From a virus: 64,000 nt of DNA. The position numbers were made by a program, and so were the translations under genes. The stretch lies in the IMG/VR virus record IMGVR_UViG_3300023184_003735, positions 60,184 to 124,183 of that record. One strand, written 5' to 3'. The notes beneath the pieces are model-generated. The model was not told the origin of the DNA, searched no databases, and worked only from the letters and a program-made list of their open reading frames with translations. This document shows positions 1,835 to 61,240 of this stretch, in pieces. Within the stretch, counting starts at the first letter, position 1; each line of letters begins with the position of its first letter.

Positions 1835-2486
1835 TGATTATTTAACATGGGAATATTCCACAGATCCTGACATACAATATCTCAATTGTCCGGCACCCAC
1901 ATCCATGCACAATCACATACCCGAATGGTTCAAAAATCAAAAGGCCCGCAAACAAGAAATCAACATAGCCGATCAACAAACTATTAGAAACTGCCTGGGG
2001 TTCCGCGGACTTGCTACCCTGGGTTATACTATTCCTTTACCAGAAGAACTCACAGGCCATGACACATATTTCAGCCGAGGTCGACTGCACCCTGAAATGC
2101 TATATGGAACCCAATGGGCCAATCAAGGCTCAGAACCCTGGACCACAGATGACACCAGTCTGTATGAATACCGTATTAGACTACTGTATTGGCCTTGGCG
2201 AGCACGAATGTCCCCAGGCTGGCGCTTGTTGATCTTGCCTTATCTATTAGATTGGTCAAATGATTGGAATGAATTTGCCGGCATAGTAGAACCCAATTAT
2301 GAAGTTAACTTTGGTAATAGTATAGGTGTTGGATTAAAATGGACTCAACCCATTGATCATAATTACAACTACTACAACCTAGAAACAGTGATGGCATACA
2401 AACGATCAGTCACTGTGACAAAGGGCACTGTGACTTTCTGTGCAGTTCCTTTGTATGACCCTGAACTAGCCGAGAAACAACTATGA
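1815..2486 (+). CDS. Hypothetical protein
   Basis: 223-aa ORF in operon. Confidence 0.7.
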   Translation: MQDITVNDYLTWEYSTDPDIQYLNCPAPTSMHNHIPEWFKNQKARKQEINIADQQTIRNCLGFRGLATLGYTIPLPEELTGHDTYFSRGRLHPEMLYGTQWANQGSEPWTTDDTSLYEYRIRLLYWPWRARMSPGWRLLILPYLLDWSNDWNEFAGIVEPNYEVNFGNSIGVGLKWTQPIDHNYNYYNLETVMAYKRSVTVTKGTVTFCAVPLYDPELAEKQL

Positions 2487-2584
2487 ACTGGATTAAACGA
2501 ATTTGGAATCGAATTGCATTGGAAATACGCTATCGTAAAAAATTACGAGAGTTGCGCAAACGAGATCCATTTATCTACAAATGA
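2483..2584 (+). CDS. Small basic protein (33 aa, MNWIKRIWNRIALEIRYRKKLRELRKRDPFIYK)
   Basis: Not in ORF track; ATGA overlaps at both ends couple it to both neighbours. Confidence 0.7.
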   Translation: MNWIKRIWNRIALEIRYRKKLRELRKRDPFIYK

Positions 2585-3225
2585 TATATTGTATAGGTGA
2601 TAGTTTTACATATGGACATGGTCTTGAAGATCCAGATAAAACCGCTTGGCCTATTGTATTAGGGACATTATTAAATCGTCCTGTTACTAATCTTGGAAAA
2701 TCCGGGTCTGGTAATACTCGAATTGTTAAACGTACAATAGATGTAGTGTTTCGCGACGATACGGAATTAGTGATACTGGCCTGGGTTGGCCCACATAGAA
2801 TAGAATTTTTTGATAAAACACCTTACGACATCTGGCCCGGACAAACTTTTAGAAAAACTCCTAATGAAATAGCAAAAGCACTTACAATAACACAAAATAA
2901 TCAATTTGATTTATGGTTGTGTAGAAAGTGGTTGAGAGATATTATCTTAACACAAAATTTATTAAAAAATCAAAACAAAAAATATCTAATGGCCAGAGCT
3001 TGGGGTGCGTGGGAACCATTGGCAGGTACTGAAGATCTATGGAACAAAATTGATTGGAACTATTTTGTAGGACACCCAACTACTACTAGAAATACAGACT
3101 ATGAAACGTTTGGCTATTGGTATACAGATATACCATTGGTACTTAACCATCCATCAGAATTGGGTCATCAAAGAATAGCAGAAAAATTTTATGAATATAT
3201 TAGGAATTTCGGCTGGATTTCATGA
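2581..3225 (+). CDS. SGNH/GDSL hydrolase-like protein
   Basis: N-terminal GDSFT, NLG block, C-terminal HPSELGH. Confidence 0.75.
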   Translation: MIYCIGDSFTYGHGLEDPDKTAWPIVLGTLLNRPVTNLGKSGSGNTRIVKRTIDVVFRDDTELVILAWVGPHRIEFFDKTPYDIWPGQTFRKTPNEIAKALTITQNNQFDLWLCRKWLRDIILTQNLLKNQNKKYLMARAWGAWEPLAGTEDLWNKIDWNYFVGHPTTTRNTDYETFGYWYTDIPLVLNHPSELGHQRIAEKFYEYIRNFGWIS

Positions 3226-25488: not shown

Positions 25489-25562
25489 TGGTGCTCCTAA
25501 CTGGTAACGATCCAGTGTTTCTACATTACCAATGCCGTGTAATGCTATTATACTATGAGAGC
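25489..25562 (-). tRNA. tRNA-Thr(GGT)
   Basis: TT GGT AA loop; atypical T-loop ATCGTTA; CCA. Confidence 0.82.
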
Positions 25563-25645: not shown

Positions 25646-26116
25646 TTACGCTGCCAAACTCTTGAATCTATCTGCGGCGTAACTGGCTGCAAATGCTTGG
25701 GGTTTGACAAAAGGTATCACATTACATGTACCTTTGATGTATCCAATGGCTTGTGAAATTACACAACTTGATCCGTGCATTTCGTTGGGATTGATGTCCA
25801 GGTGAACCTCAACTTCTCGCCCTTCTAGTACCTCTGCCAGTTTAAGGTACAATTCGCTCACTTTGTATACTTCGGTCATCAAACGTAAACTAGGGCGACT
25901 GGCCTTCTGGTCCCAGTCGCGTTCACGTTGTACTTCGCCAAACAGTTTGCAACCGTTGTTGCCATTGATATGGACCACAATAGCCAGCACATAATCGGCA
26001 TGCCAGGCACCTTCTACTTTGACACGTTCACTATCGCAACCAAGATAGATTTTTGTTTCAGGTGTTTGGGCCCGGATAAATTCTGCCACTTGGTCAATGT
26101 CTAGTTTTTTCATCAT
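25646..26116 (-). CDS. RNase H-like YkuK/DUF458 family protein
   Basis: IYLGCDS, RLMTEV, EVHLDIN, KPQAFAASYAAD. Confidence 0.8.
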   Translation of the reverse strand: MMKKLDIDQVAEFIRAQTPETKIYLGCDSERVKVEGAWHADYVLAIVVHINGNNGCKLFGEVQRERDWDQKASRPSLRLMTEVYKVSELYLKLAEVLEGREVEVHLDINPNEMHGSSCVISQAIGYIKGTCNVIPFVKPQAFAASYAADRFKSLAA

Positions 26117-26156
26117 TTGCCTTTTATTTAACTCTATAAACATTACGGTTTTATTA

Positions 26157-26233
26157 TGGTGCCCCAAGAGAGACTCGAACTCTCAAAATTTGGCTTTTAA
26201 GACCAACACGTATACCAATTCCGTCATCGGGGC
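26157..26233 (-). tRNA. tRNA-Leu(TAA), short variable loop
   Basis: TTGGT-CT TAA AA-GCCAA; CCA. Confidence 0.87.
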
Positions 26234-26644: not shown

Positions 26645-26669
26645 TAGGGGCACAGAGAATCGAACTCTA
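26642..26669 (-). pseudogene. tRNA 3' remnant (T-arm + acceptor strand + CCA)
   Basis: TAGAGTTCGATTCTCTGTGCCCCTACCA with no matching 5' half; overlaps HNH stop. Confidence 0.75.
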
Positions 26670-27248
26670 CTTCTCTAACAATCTTTTTGCTCTGGAATAG
26701 TTGTTACCCTTTGCCGCAATTCCTGCTTTGAGCAAACCTTGTCTTATACTACTGGTTTCTTTAAGACATTGTAGTAAAAATTCATCGGTTACTACATTTA
26801 CGCCGTTTTTAGAAGGTTTGTTTCGTCCCCTCCATGTATCAGTGATACTATGGCAGTTTGGGCACAGTCCTTCTAAATTTTCTCTAGTATTGTTTTGATT
26901 GTTGCCATCTTTGTGCTCAAGTTCAAGTGGAATTTTGAACCCCTGCCACTCACTTACGCCACATTTATTACAGCAATGATTTTGTTCTTCAAATACTCTG
27001 CGTCGTCTGTTTTCCATACCTAATTCAGAAAATGGAGTAGCATTATATTTGTCTAGCCACGCCTGTTTGATATTTGCTCTCCATTGATCTACATCAGAGA
27101 TAAGTCCACGTGTACTAGGCTTTCCCTTTAATGCAATACTTTTTTTACGTTTACTTTCATCGGAAAACTCCCGACTATTAGCACATGTTCTAGAACAAAA
27201 TGTTCCAGATTTGCTATGTTCTGTTTTACACTTAGGACATTGTTTCAT
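26667..27248 (-). mobile_element. HNH homing endonuclease in the tRNA array
   Basis: N-terminal CPKC/FCSRTC zinc finger; CNKC...LELEHKDGNNQNNTRENLEGLCPNCH. Confidence 0.88.
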
Positions 27249-27308
27249 ATCGAACCCTATTAAATTATAGAAGTATTTAGTAGAGTTCCATATAAAACAA
27301 CTCATAAA

Positions 27309-27382
27309 TGGTGAGACCGGAAGGTACTGCCCCTTCTTAGTCGGATTAAAAGTCCGATACTTTACTTTTAAGTTACGATCCC
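27309..27382 (-). tRNA. tRNA-Lys(TTT), atypical T-loop GGCAGTA
   Basis: TCGGA-CT TTT AA-TCCGA; GGGATCG/CGGTCTC acceptor; ACCA. Confidence 0.8.
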
Positions 27383-29131: not shown

Positions 29132-29160
29132 ATTATATAGTCAACGTGTGACCATGTCAA
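29132..29160 (-). promoter_or_regulatory. Consensus sigma70 promoter TTGACA-N17-TATAAT inside tRNA array
   Basis: Perfect boxes, just upstream of tRNA-Ser(GCT). Confidence 0.8.
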
Positions 29161-29416: not shown

Positions 29417-29437
29417 ATAACGCACTCTTGCGAATGC

Positions 29438-29520
29438 GTGTATCGAAGCACACCAAGGTCACAAACCCCGACCGTTCATGGCCGCACGAACCTTTTCGGT
29501 ACTGGTATGCTTCGATACAC
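29438..29520 (-). ncRNA. Long-stem multibranch RNA cassette
   Basis: 18-bp helix GTGTATCGAAGCATACCA/TGGTGTGCTTCGATACAC enclosing three small hairpins. Confidence 0.55.
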
Positions 29521-29610
29521 TCGGATTTTTTTATGTACAAGAACATAAGCCATCCCCGAGGCCGCCCATTTGCAGTTTTGAGTGTTGCAGGCTCGCGTTG
29601 CCTTGCACTA

Positions 29611-29645
29611 AATGAAAAACCCTGGAGTTTTAATTCCAGGGTCCT
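29611..29645 (-). terminator. Attenuator terminator 1 (CCCTGGA/TCCAGGG + TTTTTCATTT)
   Basis: GC hairpin + U-tract; its 5' arm can alternatively pair with the end of the leader ORF. Confidence 0.75.
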
Positions 29646-29671: not shown

Positions 29672-29785
29672 TTAGGACCCTGTGTCTCCTGGAATGCTTG
29701 CTGTCAAGCGACCATAGACATGTGACCAGGCGGATGTCTGATTAAACATTGTCTTGGGTAGCGATAAACAGAGTTGCGTTTTCAT
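29672..29785 (-). CDS. Putative leaderless leader peptide 1 (37 aa, MKTQLCLSLPKTMFNQTSAWSHVYGRLTASIPGDTGS)
   Basis: ATG 7 nt after TATAAT; ends in antiterminator strand. Confidence 0.6.
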   Translation of the reverse strand: MKTQLCLSLPKTMFNQTSAWSHVYGRLTASIPGDTGS

Positions 29786-29792
29786 AGTATCA

Positions 29793-29821
29793 ATTATAGT
29801 TTATTTATCATCTCGTGTCAA
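29793..29821 (-). promoter_or_regulatory. sigma70 promoter TTGACA-N17-TATAAT with ATAAATA in the spacer
   Basis: Perfect boxes and spacing. Confidence 0.8.
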
Positions 29822-29865: not shown

Positions 29866-29939
29866 TGGATGCGGGTGACAGATTCGAACTGCCGATGCAC
29901 CTGGCTTATGAGACCGGTGTGGTGGCCACCCTACCCGCG
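29866..29939 (-). tRNA. tRNA(CAT), initiator-like (C1:A72) with shortened D-arm
   Basis: CGCGGGT/ACCCGCA acceptor, CT CAT AA loop, TTCGAAT T-loop. Confidence 0.72.
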
Positions 29940-29980
29940 ATAATATTATTTATAAATTATAAAACAAATAAAATTATTTG

Positions 29981-30835
29981 TCAACCAGGATACAAATTTT
30001 CTTCACTGTCAAATTTGTAGTCGTCTGGCAATACCACCTTGGTTGAGTGGTCAATCAACTCGGCTAACTGGGCGGTGGGTACTCCGGTGACTCTAATTTG
30101 TCTTCTCCTAGAGGTGCAAATTGGAACACCATGCAAAAAATAATCACTATGCAAGTATACCGGATCGTTTGTGGTAAACACTTTTTTGTTGTCATCTCCA
30201 TCCAGTGCCCACCATAGCGGAACACCGCCATCACTGATGTTTAATGCAACGATCACATGACCTTGCTGATATAATCCATTTTCGGCACCAGCATTTTTAG
30301 CGAAAGGCAAACCAGCATCAGCAGAATATCTTGCATCACGATGTATGTTACTGAAACTTCCTGGTGCCAAACTCACACAGTGTATGTTCACAATTCGTTT
30401 AAATGGCAATTGCTTCAAAATAAATTCTACAATTTTTAAATGTTTAAATTCGGGTTTTATTTTATAAAGTCTGTTCAAATGATGATTGCGCATGCAAGAC
30501 CCACCTTCTCCAGCATTACGTTTTACAAAATCGCTATCTGATTCAATAGTGATAAGTTCTAGCAGTTGATTCATTTCAAAGCCAGAAATCCCACGAATTT
30601 CTTCAGTGTATTGTCCAGAATTACCAATTTCTATCGACACGTTCATTTTATCATACAAGATTGGATCTATCATTCCCCATGCCCGATTGAGATTACGAGT
30701 ACCATCTAAAGTTTGCCGGCGTGTACATATAGAGTGCGAAGTTGGTAAAATATATTGGTCATACTCTTCGACAAAGAGTTTGTGGTCAAAGTCGAGATTG
30801 AGTTTTGCGTAAGCAAGATTTGCAAATTGGTGCAT
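29981..30835 (-). CDS. Hypothetical protein, possible 2OG-Fe(II) oxygenase/cupin fold
   Basis: HRD...LHGV...RRQIR pattern. Confidence 0.55.
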   Translation of the reverse strand: MHQFANLAYAKLNLDFDHKLFVEEYDQYILPTSHSICTRRQTLDGTRNLNRAWGMIDPILYDKMNVSIEIGNSGQYTEEIRGISGFEMNQLLELITIESDSDFVKRNAGEGGSCMRNHHLNRLYKIKPEFKHLKIVEFILKQLPFKRIVNIHCVSLAPGSFSNIHRDARYSADAGLPFAKNAGAENGLYQQGHVIVALNISDGGVPLWWALDGDDNKKVFTTNDPVYLHSDYFLHGVPICTSRRRQIRVTGVPTAQLAELIDHSTKVVLPDDYKFDSEENLYPG

Positions 30836-30912: not shown

Positions 30913-32364
30913 TCATTGATCATGTTTTTCTAATTCGGGCACAAAATCTTTAAGTTTTACTCCACGACTATTATCAAGTACACGATTAAATTCAAAAAAT
31001 TTTTTTAAACTTTCAGTATCGGGTAGTGAATTTTTTACTTGAATTTCAATTCTATCAATTGTGGTTTTAAAATACTGATCTTGCTGATATCTCTTTAGTT
31101 GTTTGATCAACTGTAAATTGTCAAGAATTGTTTGTGGCTCGGGATGATTCCAAGGCGATTGATCAGGTTCTACGCCAGCAACAAGATTCATGGAACAATG
31201 AACTTTTAAATATTTGTCATCTAAGAAATTATAAAGATCAAACAGGTGTGCAATATTATAGATACTGATCACAGTATTGAAGTTTGCAACACGACCCATA
31301 TCATAAAGTGTAGCAACATTGCGACACCAGTTGTCCCATTTGATAGGCCATCTAATGTAGCGATTTAATTGATCAAATCCGTCTACACTCACACTAAATT
31401 CTAGATTAGGAAATTTGTTACAGTAGTCTAACATCTGAGTTGATAAGACTGATGCATTGGTGCTGACTTCAAATGCAATATCATTGCGTTGCTTTTCAAT
31501 GCATTGGTCAAGGAATTGAAAAAATTCCTTGTTTATAGTGGGCTCTCCTCCGGCTATTTGTAGACATCGCACATGGTCAATGTCAACGTGATCAAAAATA
31601 CCTTGTTTTTTGTGATTAGTATAGTTTGATAGACCAATTGCTCTATATTCTCTAGCAATGAGATGCGAATTGCCAGGAACACACATTCGACACATTGCAT
31701 TACAACGATTGTCTAATACCGCATATACATACAATGGTGAAGGTACAGTTGTTACATCTTGTTGCGTTTTAATATTAAACTTGCTACTCCAAGTTTGAGT
31801 AAAATTTTGTCTTTGACTGGTCATTCCTAGATCTTCTTTTTGCCAACAATGACTGCATTCATCAACACGTTTTCCCTGCAACATACTCTGTTTTACGGAC
31901 TGGCTCCATGATGCATCAAATTTATCAGATGGTCTTGATTGCATGTGACAGCAATGACTTTTTTGCTTTTGTGTTTGGTATAGCCCAACGAATGGTACAA
32001 TGCAAAAGGCTGGATTAGTATGTAATTCTTTTAGAATCCATGGTACCAAGTCGGGATTTTGATATTCCACTACAAAAGATTTTTGTAAGTCAAATATCAT
32101 GCTGATTGTTATTGCAAAATCTTCAGCATTATTGTAAGATTCTTGATCTTGATCTAACAATATAATTTTGCATGATTTACCATACAACAGGGTCTGCAAC
32201 TCAGCCGGTGTTATATCGTATATACTGGTATGATAGACACCAGAAGATAAGTTTGTATTTCGATCCAATACTAATTTATATTCAAGATCGTGTTGTTGTG
32301 CAATTTTTTGTGTAATTTTGTGTGCTATTTTATTGCCTGTGCCCACACATACAATTAGATTCAT
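30913..32364 (-). CDS. Radical SAM protein with N-terminal twitch/SPASM-like domain
   Basis: FCIVPF..HCC..CSHCW, CNAMCRMC, GGEPT, STNAS, SVDG..YIRW. Confidence 0.87.
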   Translation of the reverse strand: MNLIVCVGTGNKIAHKITQKIAQQHDLEYKLVLDRNTNLSSGVYHTSIYDITPAELQTLLYGKSCKIILLDQDQESYNNAEDFAITISMIFDLQKSFVVEYQNPDLVPWILKELHTNPAFCIVPFVGLYQTQKQKSHCCHMQSRPSDKFDASWSQSVKQSMLQGKRVDECSHCWQKEDLGMTSQRQNFTQTWSSKFNIKTQQDVTTVPSPLYVYAVLDNRCNAMCRMCVPGNSHLIAREYRAIGLSNYTNHKKQGIFDHVDIDHVRCLQIAGGEPTINKEFFQFLDQCIEKQRNDIAFEVSTNASVLSTQMLDYCNKFPNLEFSVSVDGFDQLNRYIRWPIKWDNWCRNVATLYDMGRVANFNTVISIYNIAHLFDLYNFLDDKYLKVHCSMNLVAGVEPDQSPWNHPEPQTILDNLQLIKQLKRYQQDQYFKTTIDRIEIQVKNSLPDTESLKKFFEFNRVLDNSRGVKLKDFVPELEKHDQ

Positions 32365-32374
32365 TATAAATTTT

Positions 32375-32766
32375 GCTCGGTTAAATGCTCTGACATCCCT
32401 CGGCGGTAATTATAGAGCATTGAGTGATAGTCTTTCCACTACACACCGCAACTTGTACTCCTTCCACCCGCTTCCCGACAGGGACCGTTCTCGTATTGCT
32501 AACGCCGGTTAGGTTAGACCGCATCTTTCGATGTGAGACTTATATTCCAAATCTCAGAACCACCCGTGCTTGTCACAGCACTTCTCATCGTCTGGGTCAG
32601 ACTATCCAGTGACGCTGGAACGTTAGGGAAGGGCTGGCCCCATAACGGGATACCACTTAGCCTTACTTATCTGTCGCGTTGGAGTAAGGCACCCTAATTA
32701 GGAGAGAAGCCACGGTTGCAGGACCTAGTGCCTTTTGCAAGGGAAGTATCCAGGCGGTGTGGCTTC
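32375..32766 (-). ncRNA. Candidate large structured ncRNA downstream of tRNA-Asp
   Basis: GC-rich, no credible ORF, several helices and a likely 3' pseudoknot. Confidence 0.5.
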
Positions 32767-32773
32767 AAAAACT

Positions 32774-32848: not shown

Positions 32849-32850
32849 AA

Positions 32851-33006
32851 ATGTTATAGTCAAGCACCGAGAATGCCAATTTATGCGTCCTCCGCTAAGA
32901 GTGCAAAAGCCGAATGCAGTTATATTAGGATCAGTCGCCGGCCGCTGTGACCCGAATAGTGTTGGCGTCCCATACACGATACCTTATCGATGCTTGACTA
33001 TAACAT
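32851..33006 (-). ncRNA. Long-stem RNA cassette
   Basis: ATGTTATAGTCAAGCATCGA/TCGGTGCTTGACTATAACAT 20-bp helix around ~115 nt. Confidence 0.55.
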
Positions 33007-33007
33007 T

Positions 33008-33132
33008 TACCATATAGAAGCACTCTCGCCAGCAGGCCTAGGAGGGGACTTGCACCACTGAAACTTTCGCATCTGCAGATACTAGGCTTCTTCTCCTGCT
33101 TTGACTTATGCCAAGAATACTTCTATATGGTA
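33008..33132 (-). ncRNA. Long-stem RNA cassette beginning at tRNA-Glu CCA
   Basis: TACCATATAGAAGTATTCTTG/CGAGAGTGCTTCTATATGGTA helix with G-U pairs. Confidence 0.55.
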
Positions 33133-33203
33133 CTCCGTGGGGGAATCGAACCCCTCCTTACCCGCGTGAAAGGCGAGTGTCCTAACCGATAGACGAACGG
33201 AGC
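33128..33203 (-). tRNA. tRNA-Glu(TTC)
   Basis: CTCGC-CT TTC AC-GCGGG; ACCA. Confidence 0.92.
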
Positions 33204-33212
33204 ATGTAGTTT

Positions 33213-33416
33213 TACATTGAGGAATCATTGTGGATCTTGTTCTGCTTGGCTTGCGAGGCCAAGTCACCACGATCATTACATCCAGACGATCCGCCGCTTT
33301 TCCGGATCACTTCGCAAGGAAGGAGAGCCTATTTCATGACTGATAGCAGATGGGCACCCGCCGATGCCGGATTCATCTCTACCAATGCCACTAACGGGTC
33401 TGGTAACCTCTTTGTA
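33213..33416 (-). ncRNA. Candidate ~200-nt structured ncRNA upstream of tRNA-Glu
   Basis: Nested helices CCAGAC/GTCTGG, GATCCG/CGGATC, CTTGGC/GCCAAG, terminal GAGG/CCTC. Confidence 0.45.
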
Positions 33417-33473
33417 TATTTTAAAGATCTGTTGCAACCAGTATCGATCTACTTTGTTGCTTTGTTAAGTTCT

Positions 33474-33502
33474 ATTGTAGCAGAGTTCCATTTATTGGTC
33501 TA
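33474..33502 (-). promoter_or_regulatory. sigma70-like promoter TAGACC-N17-TACAAT
   Basis: Variant of the repeated TTGACCAATAA..TGCTAyAAT motif. Confidence 0.55.
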
Positions 33503-33508
33503 GCACTA

Positions 33509-33541
33509 AATGAAAAACCCTCCAAATTGGAGGGCCTTTAG
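33509..33541 (-). terminator. Attenuator terminator 2 (CCCTCCA/TGGAGGG + TTTTTCATTT)
   Basis: Same architecture and tail as terminator 1. Confidence 0.75.
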
Positions 33542-33559
33542 TGATGTAGTACAAAATAC

Positions 33560-33637
33560 TTACATCCAAAGACCCTGCAGGCAATCGCGCTCGTGTTCTG
33601 AACGGAAAGTGTTAGCGATTGCGTTTATTGTCATCAT
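33560..33637 (-). CDS. Putative leaderless leader peptide 2 (25 aa, MMTINAIANTFRSEHERDCLQGLWM)
   Basis: ATG 6 nt after TACAAT; ends in antiterminator strand. Confidence 0.58.
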   Translation of the reverse strand: MMTINAIANTFRSEHERDCLQGLWM

Positions 33638-33643
33638 AGTGTT

Positions 33644-33672
33644 ATTGTATACGATTATTTATACTTTGTCAA
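33644..33672 (-). promoter_or_regulatory. sigma70 promoter TTGACA-N17-TACAAT with TATAAATA in the spacer
   Basis: Boxes and spacing seen directly. Confidence 0.78.
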
Positions 33673-34829
33673 CGAAAATAATTTTGGATTTTGCCAGATC
33701 TGCTGATGTCGTTTGTGACACAATGAATGCCGCAATCCCAGAAATATTTGTGACGGAACGGCACCACATGCACTTCGATGCCATGTCGTGCGCAGGCCTT
33801 CTCTACCTGGTCGTTGTGTGTGCTGACCACAATGTTCTTGGGATCCACTATCAGGATGTTGACGTCGAACACAGTTTCACTAACCTGTCCCACCCACTCG
33901 TCAAAGTAGTGATCCACCATGTGAACCAAGTTGTTGTCCTGTTCAAACCCGGGCATGAACCAACGTCCCTTGTTGCGTTTCATGGAGTACTCAAACTCGC
34001 GCATGTGTGCGTAGTTGCTGGGTGGCAGGTACACCACTTCCCAGTCTGGGAAGGTGTCAGCATAGGTGGGAACATCATTGAGGCTGATGATCAGACCCGG
34101 CGTCACTGGGCAATACACCGCATCACCGTGCCCACCTGAATTGACCACTCTATTTTGAGTTGTAGGAAACAACTGATTCACTTGATCTAGTATGCCTTGT
34201 TTGTCATCATGATAGGTTTGTGTGGCAAAGTACAAGTCCTCACCTATGCGACTCACAAAACAGCCGTTGATGAAATCAAGATCAGTTGACACAATCTCAT
34301 TGCCCTGCGCCTTGATGTCCGCAAACACATGAGAATAAAACCCCAACTTGGCGTCTAGATGCGCTTGATCAGTCTGATTGAATCTAGCAAACTTGGCCTG
34401 TACCTCTTCGGCAAACTCAGGATAGTCTGCATAAAAATCCGCAGGACGTATGTGGTCGTTCCACCAAGGCTGTTTGTTCTGTCGGTAAAACACTGACCAT
34501 GCATGACTGGCATTGGGAATTCGGGGAACCCAAAATCTGTCCTGAATCATCAAAAAGTAATCTCTTGGTGCTGTGGGCGGTTGCACCCACTTGTTATCTA
34601 TGTACAGTTGGGACAAGTCCGTGGGAAACTCCGGACGCATCACACGCACACCAAATCGATCTGTCAACAGTCGTATGAGTCGTTGATAGTCTTCTTCGGT
34701 CTCTTGTGCAAGAGTTTCAAAGCGTTCTCGGGTGGCAGAGTTCTTGATCCAACTGTAGAACTCTGGGGGATAAGTGCGACCCACTAATGAGACTTGTAGT
34801 GGATCCCAGTGTTGATATACTGAATACAT
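33669..34829 (-). CDS. Second amidinotransferase
   Basis: HWDPLQVSLVG, APRD, GHGD, ETVFDVN, CGIHCVT; paralog of 5469-6506. Confidence 0.82.
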   Translation of the reverse strand: MYSVYQHWDPLQVSLVGRTYPPEFYSWIKNSATRERFETLAQETEEDYQRLIRLLTDRFGVRVMRPEFPTDLSQLYIDNKWVQPPTAPRDYFLMIQDRFWVPRIPNASHAWSVFYRQNKQPWWNDHIRPADFYADYPEFAEEVQAKFARFNQTDQAHLDAKLGFYSHVFADIKAQGNEIVSTDLDFINGCFVSRIGEDLYFATQTYHDDKQGILDQVNQLFPTTQNRVVNSGGHGDAVYCPVTPGLIISLNDVPTYADTFPDWEVVYLPPSNYAHMREFEYSMKRNKGRWFMPGFEQDNNLVHMVDHYFDEWVGQVSETVFDVNILIVDPKNIVVSTHNDQVEKACARHGIEVHVVPFRHKYFWDCGIHCVTNDISRSGKIQNYFR

Positions 34830-35094: not shown

Positions 35095-35117
35095 AGAAAC
35101 CCGCCGAAGCGGGTTCT
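35095..35117 (-). terminator. Terminator after tmRNA
   Basis: AACCCGC-TTCG-GCGGGTT hairpin + TTCTCTT. Confidence 0.7.
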
Positions 35118-35274
35118 GGTGATTTCTGTTACGAGGTATTTCCTACCCTAGGCCGCTCACGCTGCCAAAGAATAAACGCTATCGTTTGCATTTACTAGTT
35201 TTGCTTGATTTACGGTCATCGCCTACCGAGCGCCATTACCCCTACTCTTTGCCCTGTCGAAACTATGCAGGCCC
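35118..35274 (-). ncRNA. ssrA: tmRNA coding piece (two-piece, permuted); tag ANDSVYSLAA* at 35189-35157
   Basis: 5' GGGCCTGCATAGTTTCGAC; resume context GTAAAT-GCA AAC GAT; tag ends LAA-TGA. Confidence 0.9.
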
Positions 35275-35275
35275 A

Positions 35276-35644
35276 TCATAAAGAAACTTGTTTGAGGTAT
35301 TGCTCACCTTCGCCAGTAACATACCAATACTCATTGTCATTGACAATGTATCCTAAATCTGCCAAACTATCCATAGCATTGTCAAAGGCTTGGGTGCGTG
35401 ACTCATCTTCTACATAGTCTAATCCTGACATGATGGCAGTATAGATTCCTTTTAGTATTAGAATTTTACCTAATCCTTTGCTTTGAAAGGTTGGATCTAA
35501 CTCTACTAAACTTCTTCCACTATCTGCATCGTATTGAAACGTTCCTGCATACTGCCCGTCAACATTCATTTCAACACCAATAGTATTACTACCTTTTGTT
35601 GTGTTAAAACTTAGTTTTGAACCGGCAATATCAGTAATACGCAT
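35276..35644 (-). CDS. GNAT-like protein encoded inside the tmRNA intervening segment
   Basis: SD AAGGAAG right after CCA; LDPTFQSKGLGK resembles acetyl-CoA motif A. Confidence 0.7.
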   Translation of the reverse strand: MRITDIAGSKLSFNTTKGSNTIGVEMNVDGQYAGTFQYDADSGRSLVELDPTFQSKGLGKILILKGIYTAIMSGLDYVEDESRTQAFDNAMDSLADLGYIVNDNEYWYVTGEGEQYLKQVSL

Positions 35645-35656
35645 CAAACTTCCTTA

Positions 35657-35720
35657 TGGTGGACCTGGGGGGATTCGCACCCCCGTCCAGAACACTTTTC
35701 TTGATAACAGTTTACGCTGT
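35657..35720 (-). ncRNA. ssrA: tmRNA acceptor piece (T-arm, acceptor 3' strand, CCA)
   Basis: TGTTCTGGACGGGGGTGCGAATCCCCCCAGGTCCACCA; pairs with GGGCCTG giving G3:U70; 5' end approximate. Confidence 0.88.
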
Positions 35721-35760
35721 TCAAGTATTTATTATACTATCAAATTGATTTGATGTCGAC

Positions 35761-35940
35761 CTATTTGGTACTCTGATTGCACGTGGCCACAATCTGTTTG
35801 TTTTGGGCCCGGAACTCTTCACGTTTCTGAACTCGGGCCTGCTCGCATTCCGCTTGGGTTTTGAACTTGGCTTGTTCGCCATACTCAGGCACTGGTCCCA
35901 AGACACTAAAACTCAACACCCAGATCAGAGTCCGGCTCAT
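35761..35940 (-). CDS. Small exported protein
   Basis: Hydrophobic N-terminus, FKTQAECEQA motif. Confidence 0.55.
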   Translation of the reverse strand: MSRTLIWVLSFSVLGPVPEYGEQAKFKTQAECEQARVQKREEFRAQNKQIVATCNQSTK

Positions 35941-43252: not shown

Positions 43253-43284
43253 ACACTGTACTATAACAGGAAACCTATTTAGTG

Positions 43285-43593
43285 TCAAGCCCGGTACCAA
43301 ACAATGTCGTCTTTTAATCTAAGAGTTTCTGCACCGTCGTATTCGTTTATGATAAATTCGGTGCCCACAGGCAACCACTCGATTTCCAAGTCGCGCATGC
43401 CGCCAAGATAGATGTTGGGATATTTCAGTTTGACGTAGACTTCAAGTTCTTCCCATTTGTTGTGTTCTACAAATTCCACTATGGCAGGGTCAAACAAGAT
43501 TTCTTCGTTTTCGGAATTCCAAGTTGACCAGCCAGCGCCATTCCCTGGTGATATCAGTACTGCCACCTGGCCATTGCGAATCAGTTTGTTCAC
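43285..43593 (-). CDS. Hypothetical phage protein
   Basis: GQVAVLISPGNGAGWSTW...FIINEYDGAE. Confidence 0.7.
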   Translation of the reverse strand: MNKLIRNGQVAVLISPGNGAGWSTWNSENEEILFDPAIVEFVEHNKWEELEVYVKLKYPNIYLGGMRDLEIEWLPVGTEFIINEYDGAETLRLKDDIVWYRA

Positions 43594-60008: not shown

Positions 60009-61240
60009 TGTGATATAAACCTTGTGTTGGGATTGATATTTAAAATAGCACGGCGCAATCCTTCGCCAATGTTCCAACTCAATATCAGTGCATATGGCTG
60101 TCGGTGTTGGGCAAACTCTTGATCTGCCACAACAGGAATTCTGGTTAACGGAGTATACTTGCCTTGCTTGTGTTCACTTGCATCAGTAATACAACGAATA
60201 ACAGTGCTGTCAAGTCCGTGCCACTTTAACCATGTGTTGGCCTTGGCTGCGGCACCGACTCCTATCACAACAGCATCTGGATCCTCGTTGAGCAATTGAT
60301 AAAAAGCGGCCAGCCAATCAATCTTGGCCTTCTCAAACTTCAGTTGTAAGTTTTGATAAAATGCAGGATCAAACAAACCCATGTTTGTTTCTTTGATAAT
60401 AGCGTCTTGAATTTTAACAGGCATGTCGGCACCAGTATCTAGTCTAGCAAACACACGCAGACTACCACCATGATAGTCAACTACGTCAAAATCAGTAATT
60501 TCTAGTCCTGCTGACTTCAGCAGATTCCAGGCCATCTTTACTGTGAAGTAAGTAGGGTGTTCATGATACACCATGTCAGTAAACCTGCCTGACTCGATCA
60601 TGCTCAGCCAGTAAGGCACTTCAAACACAAACTCTCCTGTGTTTGATAACAATCGTGCCACACTCTTTGCAAAAGCTTTAGGATCGTTGGCATGATTAAA
60701 AACATTATTGGCAATGATTGCAGAAGCCATTCCGTGTGTGGTTTTTATTGCGTCAGCAGTGGCATCATCAAATAAGGCATTGATAGTTGTGATGCCTTTT
60801 GCTTGAGCAATCACACACATTTCTGCACTGGAGTCAACACCTACACCTTGCGCAAATTGTCCCACTAGGTACCCATCGTTGCTACCAATTTCTACTACCA
60901 ATCCCACATGACCACGACTTTGAATTGTTTCAGCATATTCATCCCAGTGGCTTCTGGCTGTTTGACTGTTGCTAGAAGTATAACTGTAACTGTAGAGGTT
61001 GTAGCGATCTTCAGCCGAACTAACATATCCCAGTTGTATACTGCCTGAATCACTATTGAGATATACTTGTAAAGGAAATACAGGTTCACTGAGATGCAAT
61101 TGATCTGACCGTATAAATGTATCAGCATAGGCATGCTGACCAAAGTCAAGTATCTTTGTAACTGGTGCTGTTGAAACAACACAGTCAGTAATCAGGCCAC
61201 TGACTGTTATATTATTTTGTTGCAAGCGTCCTCCGGACAT
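60005..61240 (-). CDS. NDP-sugar C-methyltransferase (class I SAM)
   Basis: VEIGSNDG, ANNVFNH, YHEH, HGGSLR, GAAAK, KQGKYTP, LSWN. Confidence 0.88.
   Translation of the reverse strand: MSGGRLQQNNITVSGLITDCVVSTAPVTKILDFGQHAYADTFIRSDQLHLSEPVFPLQVYLNSDSGSIQLGYVSSAEDRYNLYSYSYTSSNSQTARSHWDEYAETIQSRGHVGLVVEIGSNDGYLVGQFAQGVGVDSSAEMCVIAQAKGITTINALFDDATADAIKTTHGMASAIIANNVFNHANDPKAFAKSVARLLSNTGEFVFEVPYWLSMIESGRFTDMVYHEHPTYFTVKMAWNLLKSAGLEITDFDVVDYHGGSLRVFARLDTGADMPVKIQDAIIKETNMGLFDPAFYQNLQLKFEKAKIDWLAAFYQLLNEDPDAVVIGVGAAAKANTWLKWHGLDSTVIRCITDASEHKQGKYTPLTRIPVVADQEFAQHRQPYALILSWNIGEGLRRAILNINPNTRFISQ

Follow-up and report, generated by a model that had tools for sequence, protein, structure and literature searches.

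How phages control the transfer RNA (tRNA) genes that they carry is the question raised by a short region in a 64,000-nucleotide (nt) stretch of virus DNA, positions 60,184 to 124,183 of the IMG/VR record IMGVR_UViG_3300023184_003735. Phage tRNA genes are common, and the control of their expression is largely unknown. The whole stretch is referred to here as the window, and the region, at 33672–33503 on its minus strand, as unit 2. A first-pass annotation had described unit 2 as a leader-peptide attenuator upstream of tRNA-Glu and tRNA-Asp, of the same design as another unit in the window (unit 1). Our analysis makes it probable that unit 2 acts as a transcription attenuator of the ribosome-mediated, leader-peptide kind, with a strong sigma-70 promoter on one side and phage tRNA genes on the other, and the comparative evidence supports this reading well. 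The elements of unit 2 and the genes that it precedes are as follows.

33672–33644, minus strand: promoter P1, with TTGACA at 33672–33667, a 17-nt spacer containing ATAAATAA, and TACAAT at 33649–33644
33637–33560, minus strand: leader open reading frame (ORF) of 25 sense codons, 22 of them distinct, with a TAA stop at 33562–33560
33598–33584, minus strand: Glu-x-Glu-x-Asp codons, the candidate control codons (GAA 33598–33596, GAG 33592–33590, GAT 33586–33584)
33576–33561, minus strand: antiterminator 5' arm, AGGGTCTTTGGATGTA, overlapping the final ORF codons and the TAA stop
33548–33531, minus strand: antiterminator 3' arm, whose final four bases, CCCT, are the first bases of the terminator 5' arm
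33534–33513, minus strand: intrinsic terminator, CCCTCCA/ATT/TGGAGGG at 33534–33518 (7-bp stem, 3-nt loop), then T5 at 33517–33513
33502–33474, minus strand: promoter P2, with TAGACC, 17 nt, and TG-n-TACAAT (TG before the −10), immediately 3' of the terminator
33203–33128, minus strand: tRNA-Glu(ttc), the first gene downstream of unit 2 (ARAGORN and Rfam)
32848–32774, minus strand: tRNA-Asp(gtc), downstream of tRNA-Glu (ARAGORN and Rfam)

All the details listed in the annotation are present, among them the promoter, the ATG, the 25-codon ORF with its GAA, GAG and GAT codons, and the two tRNA genes. P1 scored 11/12 against the consensus in a promoter scan, and because the leader ATG (33637) lies only 6 nt past the −10 element, the leader mRNA of unit 2 is probably leaderless. 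The predicted pairing of the end of the ORF into the 5' arm of CCCTCCA/TGGAGGG was also found: the duplex energy of the two antiterminator arms is −16.6 kcal/mol, and that of the terminator hairpin is −13.4 kcal/mol. When both conformers were folded, as the annotation had suggested, the minimum free energy (MFE) structure of full-length unit 2 (−39.2 kcal/mol) contained the terminator, and the long antiterminator helix appeared when the terminator 3' arm was omitted (−35.0 kcal/mol). The fold is more stable than those of shuffled sequences (z = −3.5). Folding replaced a consensus terminator scan for identifying the unit terminators; that scan of the window listed the terminator of neither unit, though both satisfy its stated rule by eye.

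With these elements, the switch would operate in the following way. Transcription would begin at or next to the ATG, and the leader would be translated as a leaderless mRNA. A ribosome keeping pace to the stop codon would cover 33576–33561 and thereby free the CCCT strand, so that the terminator hairpin would form and transcription would end at the T-run. If the ribosome were late or stalled, or if initiation failed, 33576–33561 would pair with 33548–33531 and remove the terminator 5' arm, and with this arm sequestered, RNA polymerase would continue into tRNA-Glu and tRNA-Asp. With tRNA supply as the sensed quantity, the outcome would be negative feedback on phage tRNA production. The computation shows the sequence elements, the conserved frame, the covarying helices that compete, the placement before tRNA arrays, and the composition and codon match of the leaders; we infer where transcription starts, that the leader is translated, which way the switch works and what it responds to.

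Unit 2 proved to share its plan with unit 1, as had been claimed, and an 18-mer common to the two T-run regions, GGGTTTTTCATTTAGTGC, occurs exactly twice in the window (33520–33503 and 29622–29605), a result obtained in 0 of 100 shuffles. Unit 1 and the gene adjoining unit 2 occupy the following positions.

29821–29612, minus strand: unit 1, with a promoter at 29821–29793, a 37-codon, predicted leaderless ORF at 29785–29672, and a terminator at 29641–29620
29682–29675 and 29644–29637, minus strand: antiterminator of unit 1, CAGGGTCC against GGACCCTG
34829–33669, minus strand: gene for a protein of 386 amino acids (aa), immediately 5' of unit 2

Unlike unit 2, unit 1 displays the antiterminator in its full-length MFE structure; behind it come a structured RNA and an array of at least 18 tRNA genes. 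A search of IMG/VR gave 130 relatives of the 386-aa gene; 80 loci were retained, and a comparable unit follows the gene in 3 of the 79 loci in which the gene end was located (L003, L024 and L081). Two terminator patterns searched in the same database returned 35 and 116 stretches. The fetched loci and the window together held 148 terminator-pattern matches with 119 distinct upstream sequences, and 90 of the 148 had a sigma-70 promoter, an ATG 5–10 nt past the −10 and an ORF of 22–48 codons, with 68 distinct peptides. The annotation had argued that an independent copy speaks against chance; with 90 units in IMG/VR, the two copies in the window are not a chance pair. The remaining 58 matches included approximately 10 leader units missed by the promoter filter, approximately 11 chance matches of the shorter pattern, and a long structural-like gene closed by the same terminator (approximately 22 distinct 3' ends). 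This terminator (CCCTGGAAYTAA..CTCCRGGGTTTTT), which closes the long gene in about 22 distinct contigs (e.g., L234, L245 and L293), is a reused module in this clade of giant phages.

The family promoter is highly uniform: TTGAC and the −10 positions A2, A4, A5 and T6 are near-invariant, GG stands 5' of the −35 in 55–58 of 67 promoters, and in 51 of 68 cases the ATG lies 6 or 7 nt past the −10. Across the family, this promoter geometry predicts transcription to start at, or no more than 3 nt from, the leader ATG. A covariance-model search, which had also been proposed earlier, was run with model R1 on five virus records. It detected two genuine units in the record that contains the window and a single one in each of the four relatives; three weak R1 matches were rejected, since they proved to be ordinary terminators that follow protein genes and precede no tRNA. 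The promoter-spacer pattern ATAAATAA..TAYAAT..ATG was likewise set aside, the matches listed from IMG/VR being mostly unrelated AT-rich contigs. Rfam gave no match to either unit at the gathering score or at E up to 1.

Nearly all units precede tRNA genes. Downstream sequence of 500 nt or more was available for 81 units. In 80 of them, a tRNA gene on the same strand follows within 4 kb, at a median distance of 311 nt, and in none is there a tRNA on the reverse strand; the sole unit without a tRNA has only 827 nt downstream. In the control set, in which the same terminator lies behind long ORFs, 1 of 25 terminators is followed by a tRNA. The element next to the T-run is of one of two types: a Shine-Dalgarno sequence with a small protein gene that is conserved, or a structured RNA of approximately 170–190 nt, likewise conserved. 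The first arrangement is found in many relatives, with a strong Shine-Dalgarno sequence within about 10–25 nt of the T-run, a conserved gene for a protein of 51–57 residues, and then tRNAs (e.g., L024 5369–5542, L081 5371–5544, and L341 1316–1483 on the minus strand); six of these small proteins matched no family at the curated level in PHROGs and Pfam. The structured RNA, at 29420–29605 (minus strand) in the window, lies between a unit 1-type terminator and the first tRNA (Trp or Ala) and has 19 distinct copies elsewhere. Its features are an outer stem (GTGC/GCAC), a hairpin whose stem covaries and whose loop reads AACGAG, the motif GGGCGG, one long stem and, ahead of the tRNA, a last hairpin; Rfam gave no match to it at E up to 1. 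Consensus promoters without a leader also abut tRNA genes on the minus strand, at 43260–43288 (tRNA-Met 43252), 29956–29984 (tRNA-Met 29939) and 29132–29160 (tRNA-Ser 29123); attenuators are placed on only some of the tRNA transcription units.

The reading frame of the leader is kept across the family. In all 70 distinct units, the stop in frame 0 ends 47–62 nt before the end of the T-run, whereas frames +1 and +2 gave such a stop in 0/70 and 2/70, respectively. The ratio of nonsynonymous to synonymous polymorphism (pN/pS) is 0.28–0.83 in equal-length subfamilies, which suggests weak purifying selection and fits a regulatory ORF overlapped by an RNA structure. Furthermore, variants with the promoter about 48 nt upstream carry the Shine-Dalgarno sequence AAGGA before the ATG (L252, L253 and L279/L342). 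The frame, the pN/pS values and the Shine-Dalgarno variants argue for translation of the leader. Contigs of relatives from RNA-labelled runs cover tRNA, non-coding RNA and leader regions; these four runs (two studies) are all Logan assembled contigs with shares of 0.05–0.07, which cannot show starts, ends or levels, and a contig end at the repeated terminator is unreadable as an RNA end.

The competing helices are also conserved as pairs. The duplex test compared 38 nt around the stop with 16 nt ending in CCCT in 66 of the 70 units (four have no exact CCCT); cognate arm pairs averaged −15.0 kcal/mol, as against −10.9 kcal/mol for non-cognate pairs (z = −13.8, 2000 permutations). In the ungapped register, the two positions flanking the GGG/CCC core (positions 2 and 3) alternate between C-G and T-A, with 229 of 342 cells paired, as compared with 192.8 ± 5.7 for permuted partners and 191, 141 and 137 for slid registers. 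The stop starts 6–14 nt past the first G of the arm in 42 of 57 cases, and in several units a 16-bp antiterminator helix encloses the stop codon. The terminator hairpins of the 70 units have energies of −12.8 to −16.7 kcal/mol and are followed by the T-run. When the nascent RNA was folded with no ribosome, the antiterminator occupied at least half of the terminator 5' arm in 70/70 units; a 30-nt footprint on the stop let the terminator form in silico in 67/70, and a footprint in mid-ORF gave the antiterminator in 70/70. In full-length RNA with no ribosome, the terminator was the MFE structure in 36 of the 70 units, and the two states are therefore balanced. No upstream hairpin that sequesters the antiterminator arm (1:2 type) was found in the folds of the 70 units. 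Taken with the reading frame and the tRNA context, the covariation and the footprint folding support the attenuator design that had been proposed.

What the leader senses is suggested by its composition. Leaders contain a mean of 18.19 distinct amino acids (36 representatives), and the means under the null models were 15.8 for windows of the record's 74 long ORFs, 16.26 for the pooled leader composition and 16.34 for random codons; the observed mean was reached in 0 of 2000–3000 simulations (300 for the random-codon null). All 20 amino acids occur in 10 of the 36 representatives, where 0.3–0.4 were expected and the simulated maximum was 4. The composition is flattened, with Cys, His, Met and Trp increased and Ala, Asp and Val decreased. 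The 68 peptides contain no tandem run of regulatory codons and no Cys run, and unit 2 has the spaced Glu-x-Glu-x-Asp.

The codons also match the tRNAs downstream. Downstream sequence of at least 2.5 kb was available for 27 representative units, and their leaders hold a cognate codon for 259 of the 282 downstream anticodons. The expected numbers were 189.6 ± 6.9 for gene windows of equal length, 234.6 ± 5.4 when leaders were permuted among arrays, and 244.5 ± 4.0 when they were permuted within length classes (maximum 258 in 5000). The presence or absence of an amino acid in the leader agreed with the presence or absence of its tRNA downstream in 281 of 513 cells, as compared with 243.4 ± 7.8. 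In L254, the 22-residue leader contains no C, F, H, K, Q, R, W or Y, and the array within 4 kb has none of these tRNAs, nor those for I and S. Similarly, the leaders of the unit 1 subfamily have no Glu codons and its arrays have no tRNA-Glu within 4 kb, in agreement with the earlier remark that unit 2 carries the Glu codons that unit 1 lacks. The suggestion that leader codons partly match the tRNAs controlled is supported across the family, and in unit 2 it is reflected in the S-E-x-E-x-D-C kept before tRNA-Glu and tRNA-Asp.

Because the leaders hold nearly every amino acid, and notably the codons read by the tRNAs of the array, the quantity sensed is most likely the supply of usable tRNAs, and we infer such a signal with the support of these counts. 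A broader proposal, which we advance tentatively and at somewhat less than even chances, is that giant phages control their own tRNA arrays through near-pangram leaders, such that a shortage of any one array tRNA switches the array on. The leader would contain at least one codon for almost every array tRNA, and a shortage, arising from the decay of host tRNAs during infection, would slow the leader ribosome; once phage tRNAs were plentiful, termination would resume. Defence nucleases that target and cleave tRNAs are another possible source of shortage.

Unit 2 itself represents a short, atypical member of the family, which is available in three versions: that of the window, that of L003/L219 and that of L320. 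Their leader peptides, of 25 codons each, are MMTINAIANTFRSEHERDCLQGLWM (window), MITTNAITNTYCSEKEWDCLQGLCV (L003/L219) and MNQTTAIITTLRSEHEWDCHWGLCL (L320). S-E-x-E-x-D-C is constant in all three, and the adjacent residues vary; the Glu-x-Glu-x-Asp codons are likely the sensing positions of unit 2. The terminator stem is altered in L003 (CCCTGC/GCAGGG) with the pairing maintained. The non-coding stretches 33204–33502, 32849–33127 and 32384–32773 (minus strand), which flank tRNA-Glu and tRNA-Asp and correspond to the candidate non-coding RNAs of the first-pass annotation, have 70–90% identity in L003, L320, L316 and other contigs.

Several observations weigh against the attenuator reading or limit its reach. 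The most important concerns P2, the TAGACC-N17-TACAAT promoter past the terminator, which the annotation had raised as a caveat, and which is strengthened by its conservation in the three orthologues and L316. P2, a promoter with an extended −10, is conserved in L003 and L320 as in the window, and L316 has it with a better −35, as TTGACC-N17-TACAAT, behind tRNA genes and with no attenuator preceding it. P2 would supply a basal level outside the control of the attenuator, and tRNA-Glu and tRNA-Asp may be made mostly independently of the switch. Because this conserved promoter follows the terminator, the attenuator can only add P1-driven transcription to a P2 baseline, and the control of unit 2 over the two tRNAs, which can be at most partial, is probably so. 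Additionally, the unit 2 type is represented by three sequences only, the L320 antiterminator contains an internal A-A mismatch, and Glu and Asp account for only 3 of the 25 unit 2 codons. When unit 2 is folded at full length, the MFE favours the terminator by about 4 kcal/mol, and readthrough therefore hinges on folding kinetics. Across the family, the T-run is just 5 long in many units, the leaders hold many codons unread by the tRNAs of their arrays, and, because the units are related by descent, permutation yields p-values for the codon–tRNA match that are too small. Leaderless translation in the host is an assumption. Finally, the peptides show some conservation (Trp at the centre, GSE and EGWDD at the end), which could mean a role for the peptide itself.

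Such motifs are what would be expected if each unit were an independent small-protein gene, with the 25–48-residue peptide as its product and the tRNAs made from other promoters such as P2. The pN/pS values below 1 (0.28–0.83), the conserved promoter past the unit 2 terminator, and the use of the same terminator to close an ordinary long gene are all compatible with this explanation. However, it leaves unexplained the covarying, terminator-competing helix in which the stop codon is embedded, the near-exclusive placement before tRNA arrays (80/81 vs. 1/25), and both the excess of distinct amino acids and the match with downstream anticodons. The peptide also changes rapidly: approximately 9 of the 25 leader residues differ between the window and L003, as against 95% identity in the neighbouring 386-aa protein. 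We therefore consider a small-protein gene unlikely.

The same motifs could alternatively belong to an arrest peptide of the TnaC type, in which the conserved Trp and the C-terminal motifs would cause stalling when a small molecule or factor, and not tRNA supply, gives the signal. Nearly every leader has a mid-peptide Trp and a conserved ending near the stop, and tRNA-Trp is among the first tRNAs of many arrays. Yet the GGG and GGT codons of the conserved endings fall in the RNA arm, so that RNA pairing can account for these endings, the enrichment of Trp fits the general flattening of composition, and unit 2 has no central Trp. In the folding model, moreover, stalling at the stop would promote termination and not readthrough, and we regard this explanation as improbable. 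A non-coding small RNA gene, in which about 125 nt of structured RNA lie between promoter and terminator and the ORF is incidental, would account for the fold beating shuffles (z = −3.5) and sits among other structured RNAs of the phage region, but it is very improbable given a frame that is open to a fixed terminator distance in 70/70 units (0 and 2/70 in the other frames), an ATG at a fixed place past the −10, the occurrence of Shine-Dalgarno-bearing variants, and a leader composition that is non-random at the amino-acid level.

The ribosome-mediated attenuator that we favour resembles known systems in part. Leader-peptide attenuators precede amino-acid biosynthetic operons, as in trpL, hisL, pheL, thrL, leuL and ilvL. 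Like the trpL type, the phage units have a short ORF at the 5' end and an intrinsic terminator ahead of the genes to be regulated, and their terminator and antiterminator helices use one strand in common; in both, a ribosome at the stop would block the antiterminator, and fast translation would lead to termination. In contrast, the phage units would regulate tRNAs (plus small proteins or a structured RNA) and not biosynthetic enzymes, their leaders have no single-codon run and span nearly all amino acids, and they are predicted to start leaderless. They also have no upstream 1:2 hairpin, so that, unlike in trp, the absence of translation is predicted to give readthrough. A T-box riboswitch contains no ORF; uncharged tRNA is bound by it directly, and its targets are genes for aminoacyl-tRNA synthetases and amino-acid genes. 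It couples tRNA status to a choice between terminator and antiterminator, as the phage units would, but the phage units have a leader ORF and tRNA genes as targets, and gave no Rfam T-box match. In attenuators based on stalling induced by translation inhibitors (for example the vmlR and mef/msr leaders), a leader ORF likewise senses slowed translation and sets the choice between terminator and antiterminator; there the regulated genes are bacterial antibiotic-resistance genes, and no tRNA operon or phage case was among those listed. In one report, a leaderless polycysteine short ORF heads a mycobacterial operon, and ribosome pausing on it alters mRNA structure and downstream expression (10.1101/834739). 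The phage units would resemble it as sensory short ORFs at the head of an operon, with a leaderless start that is predicted here; in the mycobacterial case, a poly-Cys tract acts at the translation level by freeing a sequestered ribosome-binding site, whereas the phage units have an intrinsic terminator, no codon run and phage tRNA targets. None of the passages returned by full-text literature searches described an attenuator ahead of tRNA operons or of the tRNA genes of phages.

If attenuators do precede the tRNA arrays, phages would gauge translation capacity and tune tRNA supply by feedback, and the leaders would represent a new design of sensory ORF, with maximal codon coverage in place of a single-codon run. 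If the near-pangram proposal is also correct, this would be the first attenuator that senses its own product, with one sensor for the whole tRNA pool. The unit would be a compact part for sensing global tRNA status, and the leaders could reveal which tRNAs matter to the phage, including in conflicts with host defences that cleave tRNAs.

The record from which the window derives is a 124-kb IMG/VR virus record with a completeness of 36% (CheckV), and its relatives reach sizes of 300–357 kb. GenBank phage records gave no megablast match to window positions 33000–34000, and tblastn with the 386-aa protein gave distant matches only (25–37% identity). ARAGORN detected 25 tRNA genes in the window, every one on the minus strand, and this strand also holds several near-consensus sigma-70 promoters in the consensus scan. 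Rfam added two tRNAs, at 27312–27382 and 25492–25562 (minus strand), that are absent from the ARAGORN set, together with a transfer-messenger RNA (tmRNA) in two pieces; conversely, the tRNA-Met that ARAGORN called at 29866–29939 (minus strand; anticodon at position 30) is missed by Rfam even at E up to 1. The two-piece tmRNA (permuted, alpha-type) lies at 35115–35763 on the minus strand (RF01849, 53.7 bits; RF04321, 58.6 bits) and is accompanied by a TCGACA-N17-TATAAT promoter that begins at 35759; a permuted tmRNA on a phage may be a hint at the host group. Within or beside the tRNA arrays, on the minus strand, are an HNH endonuclease-like gene at 26667–27305 (PHROG, E = 1.6e-25), an RNase H-like gene at 25646–26167 (Pfam PF04308), and a gene for a radical SAM protein of 483 aa at 30913–32364.
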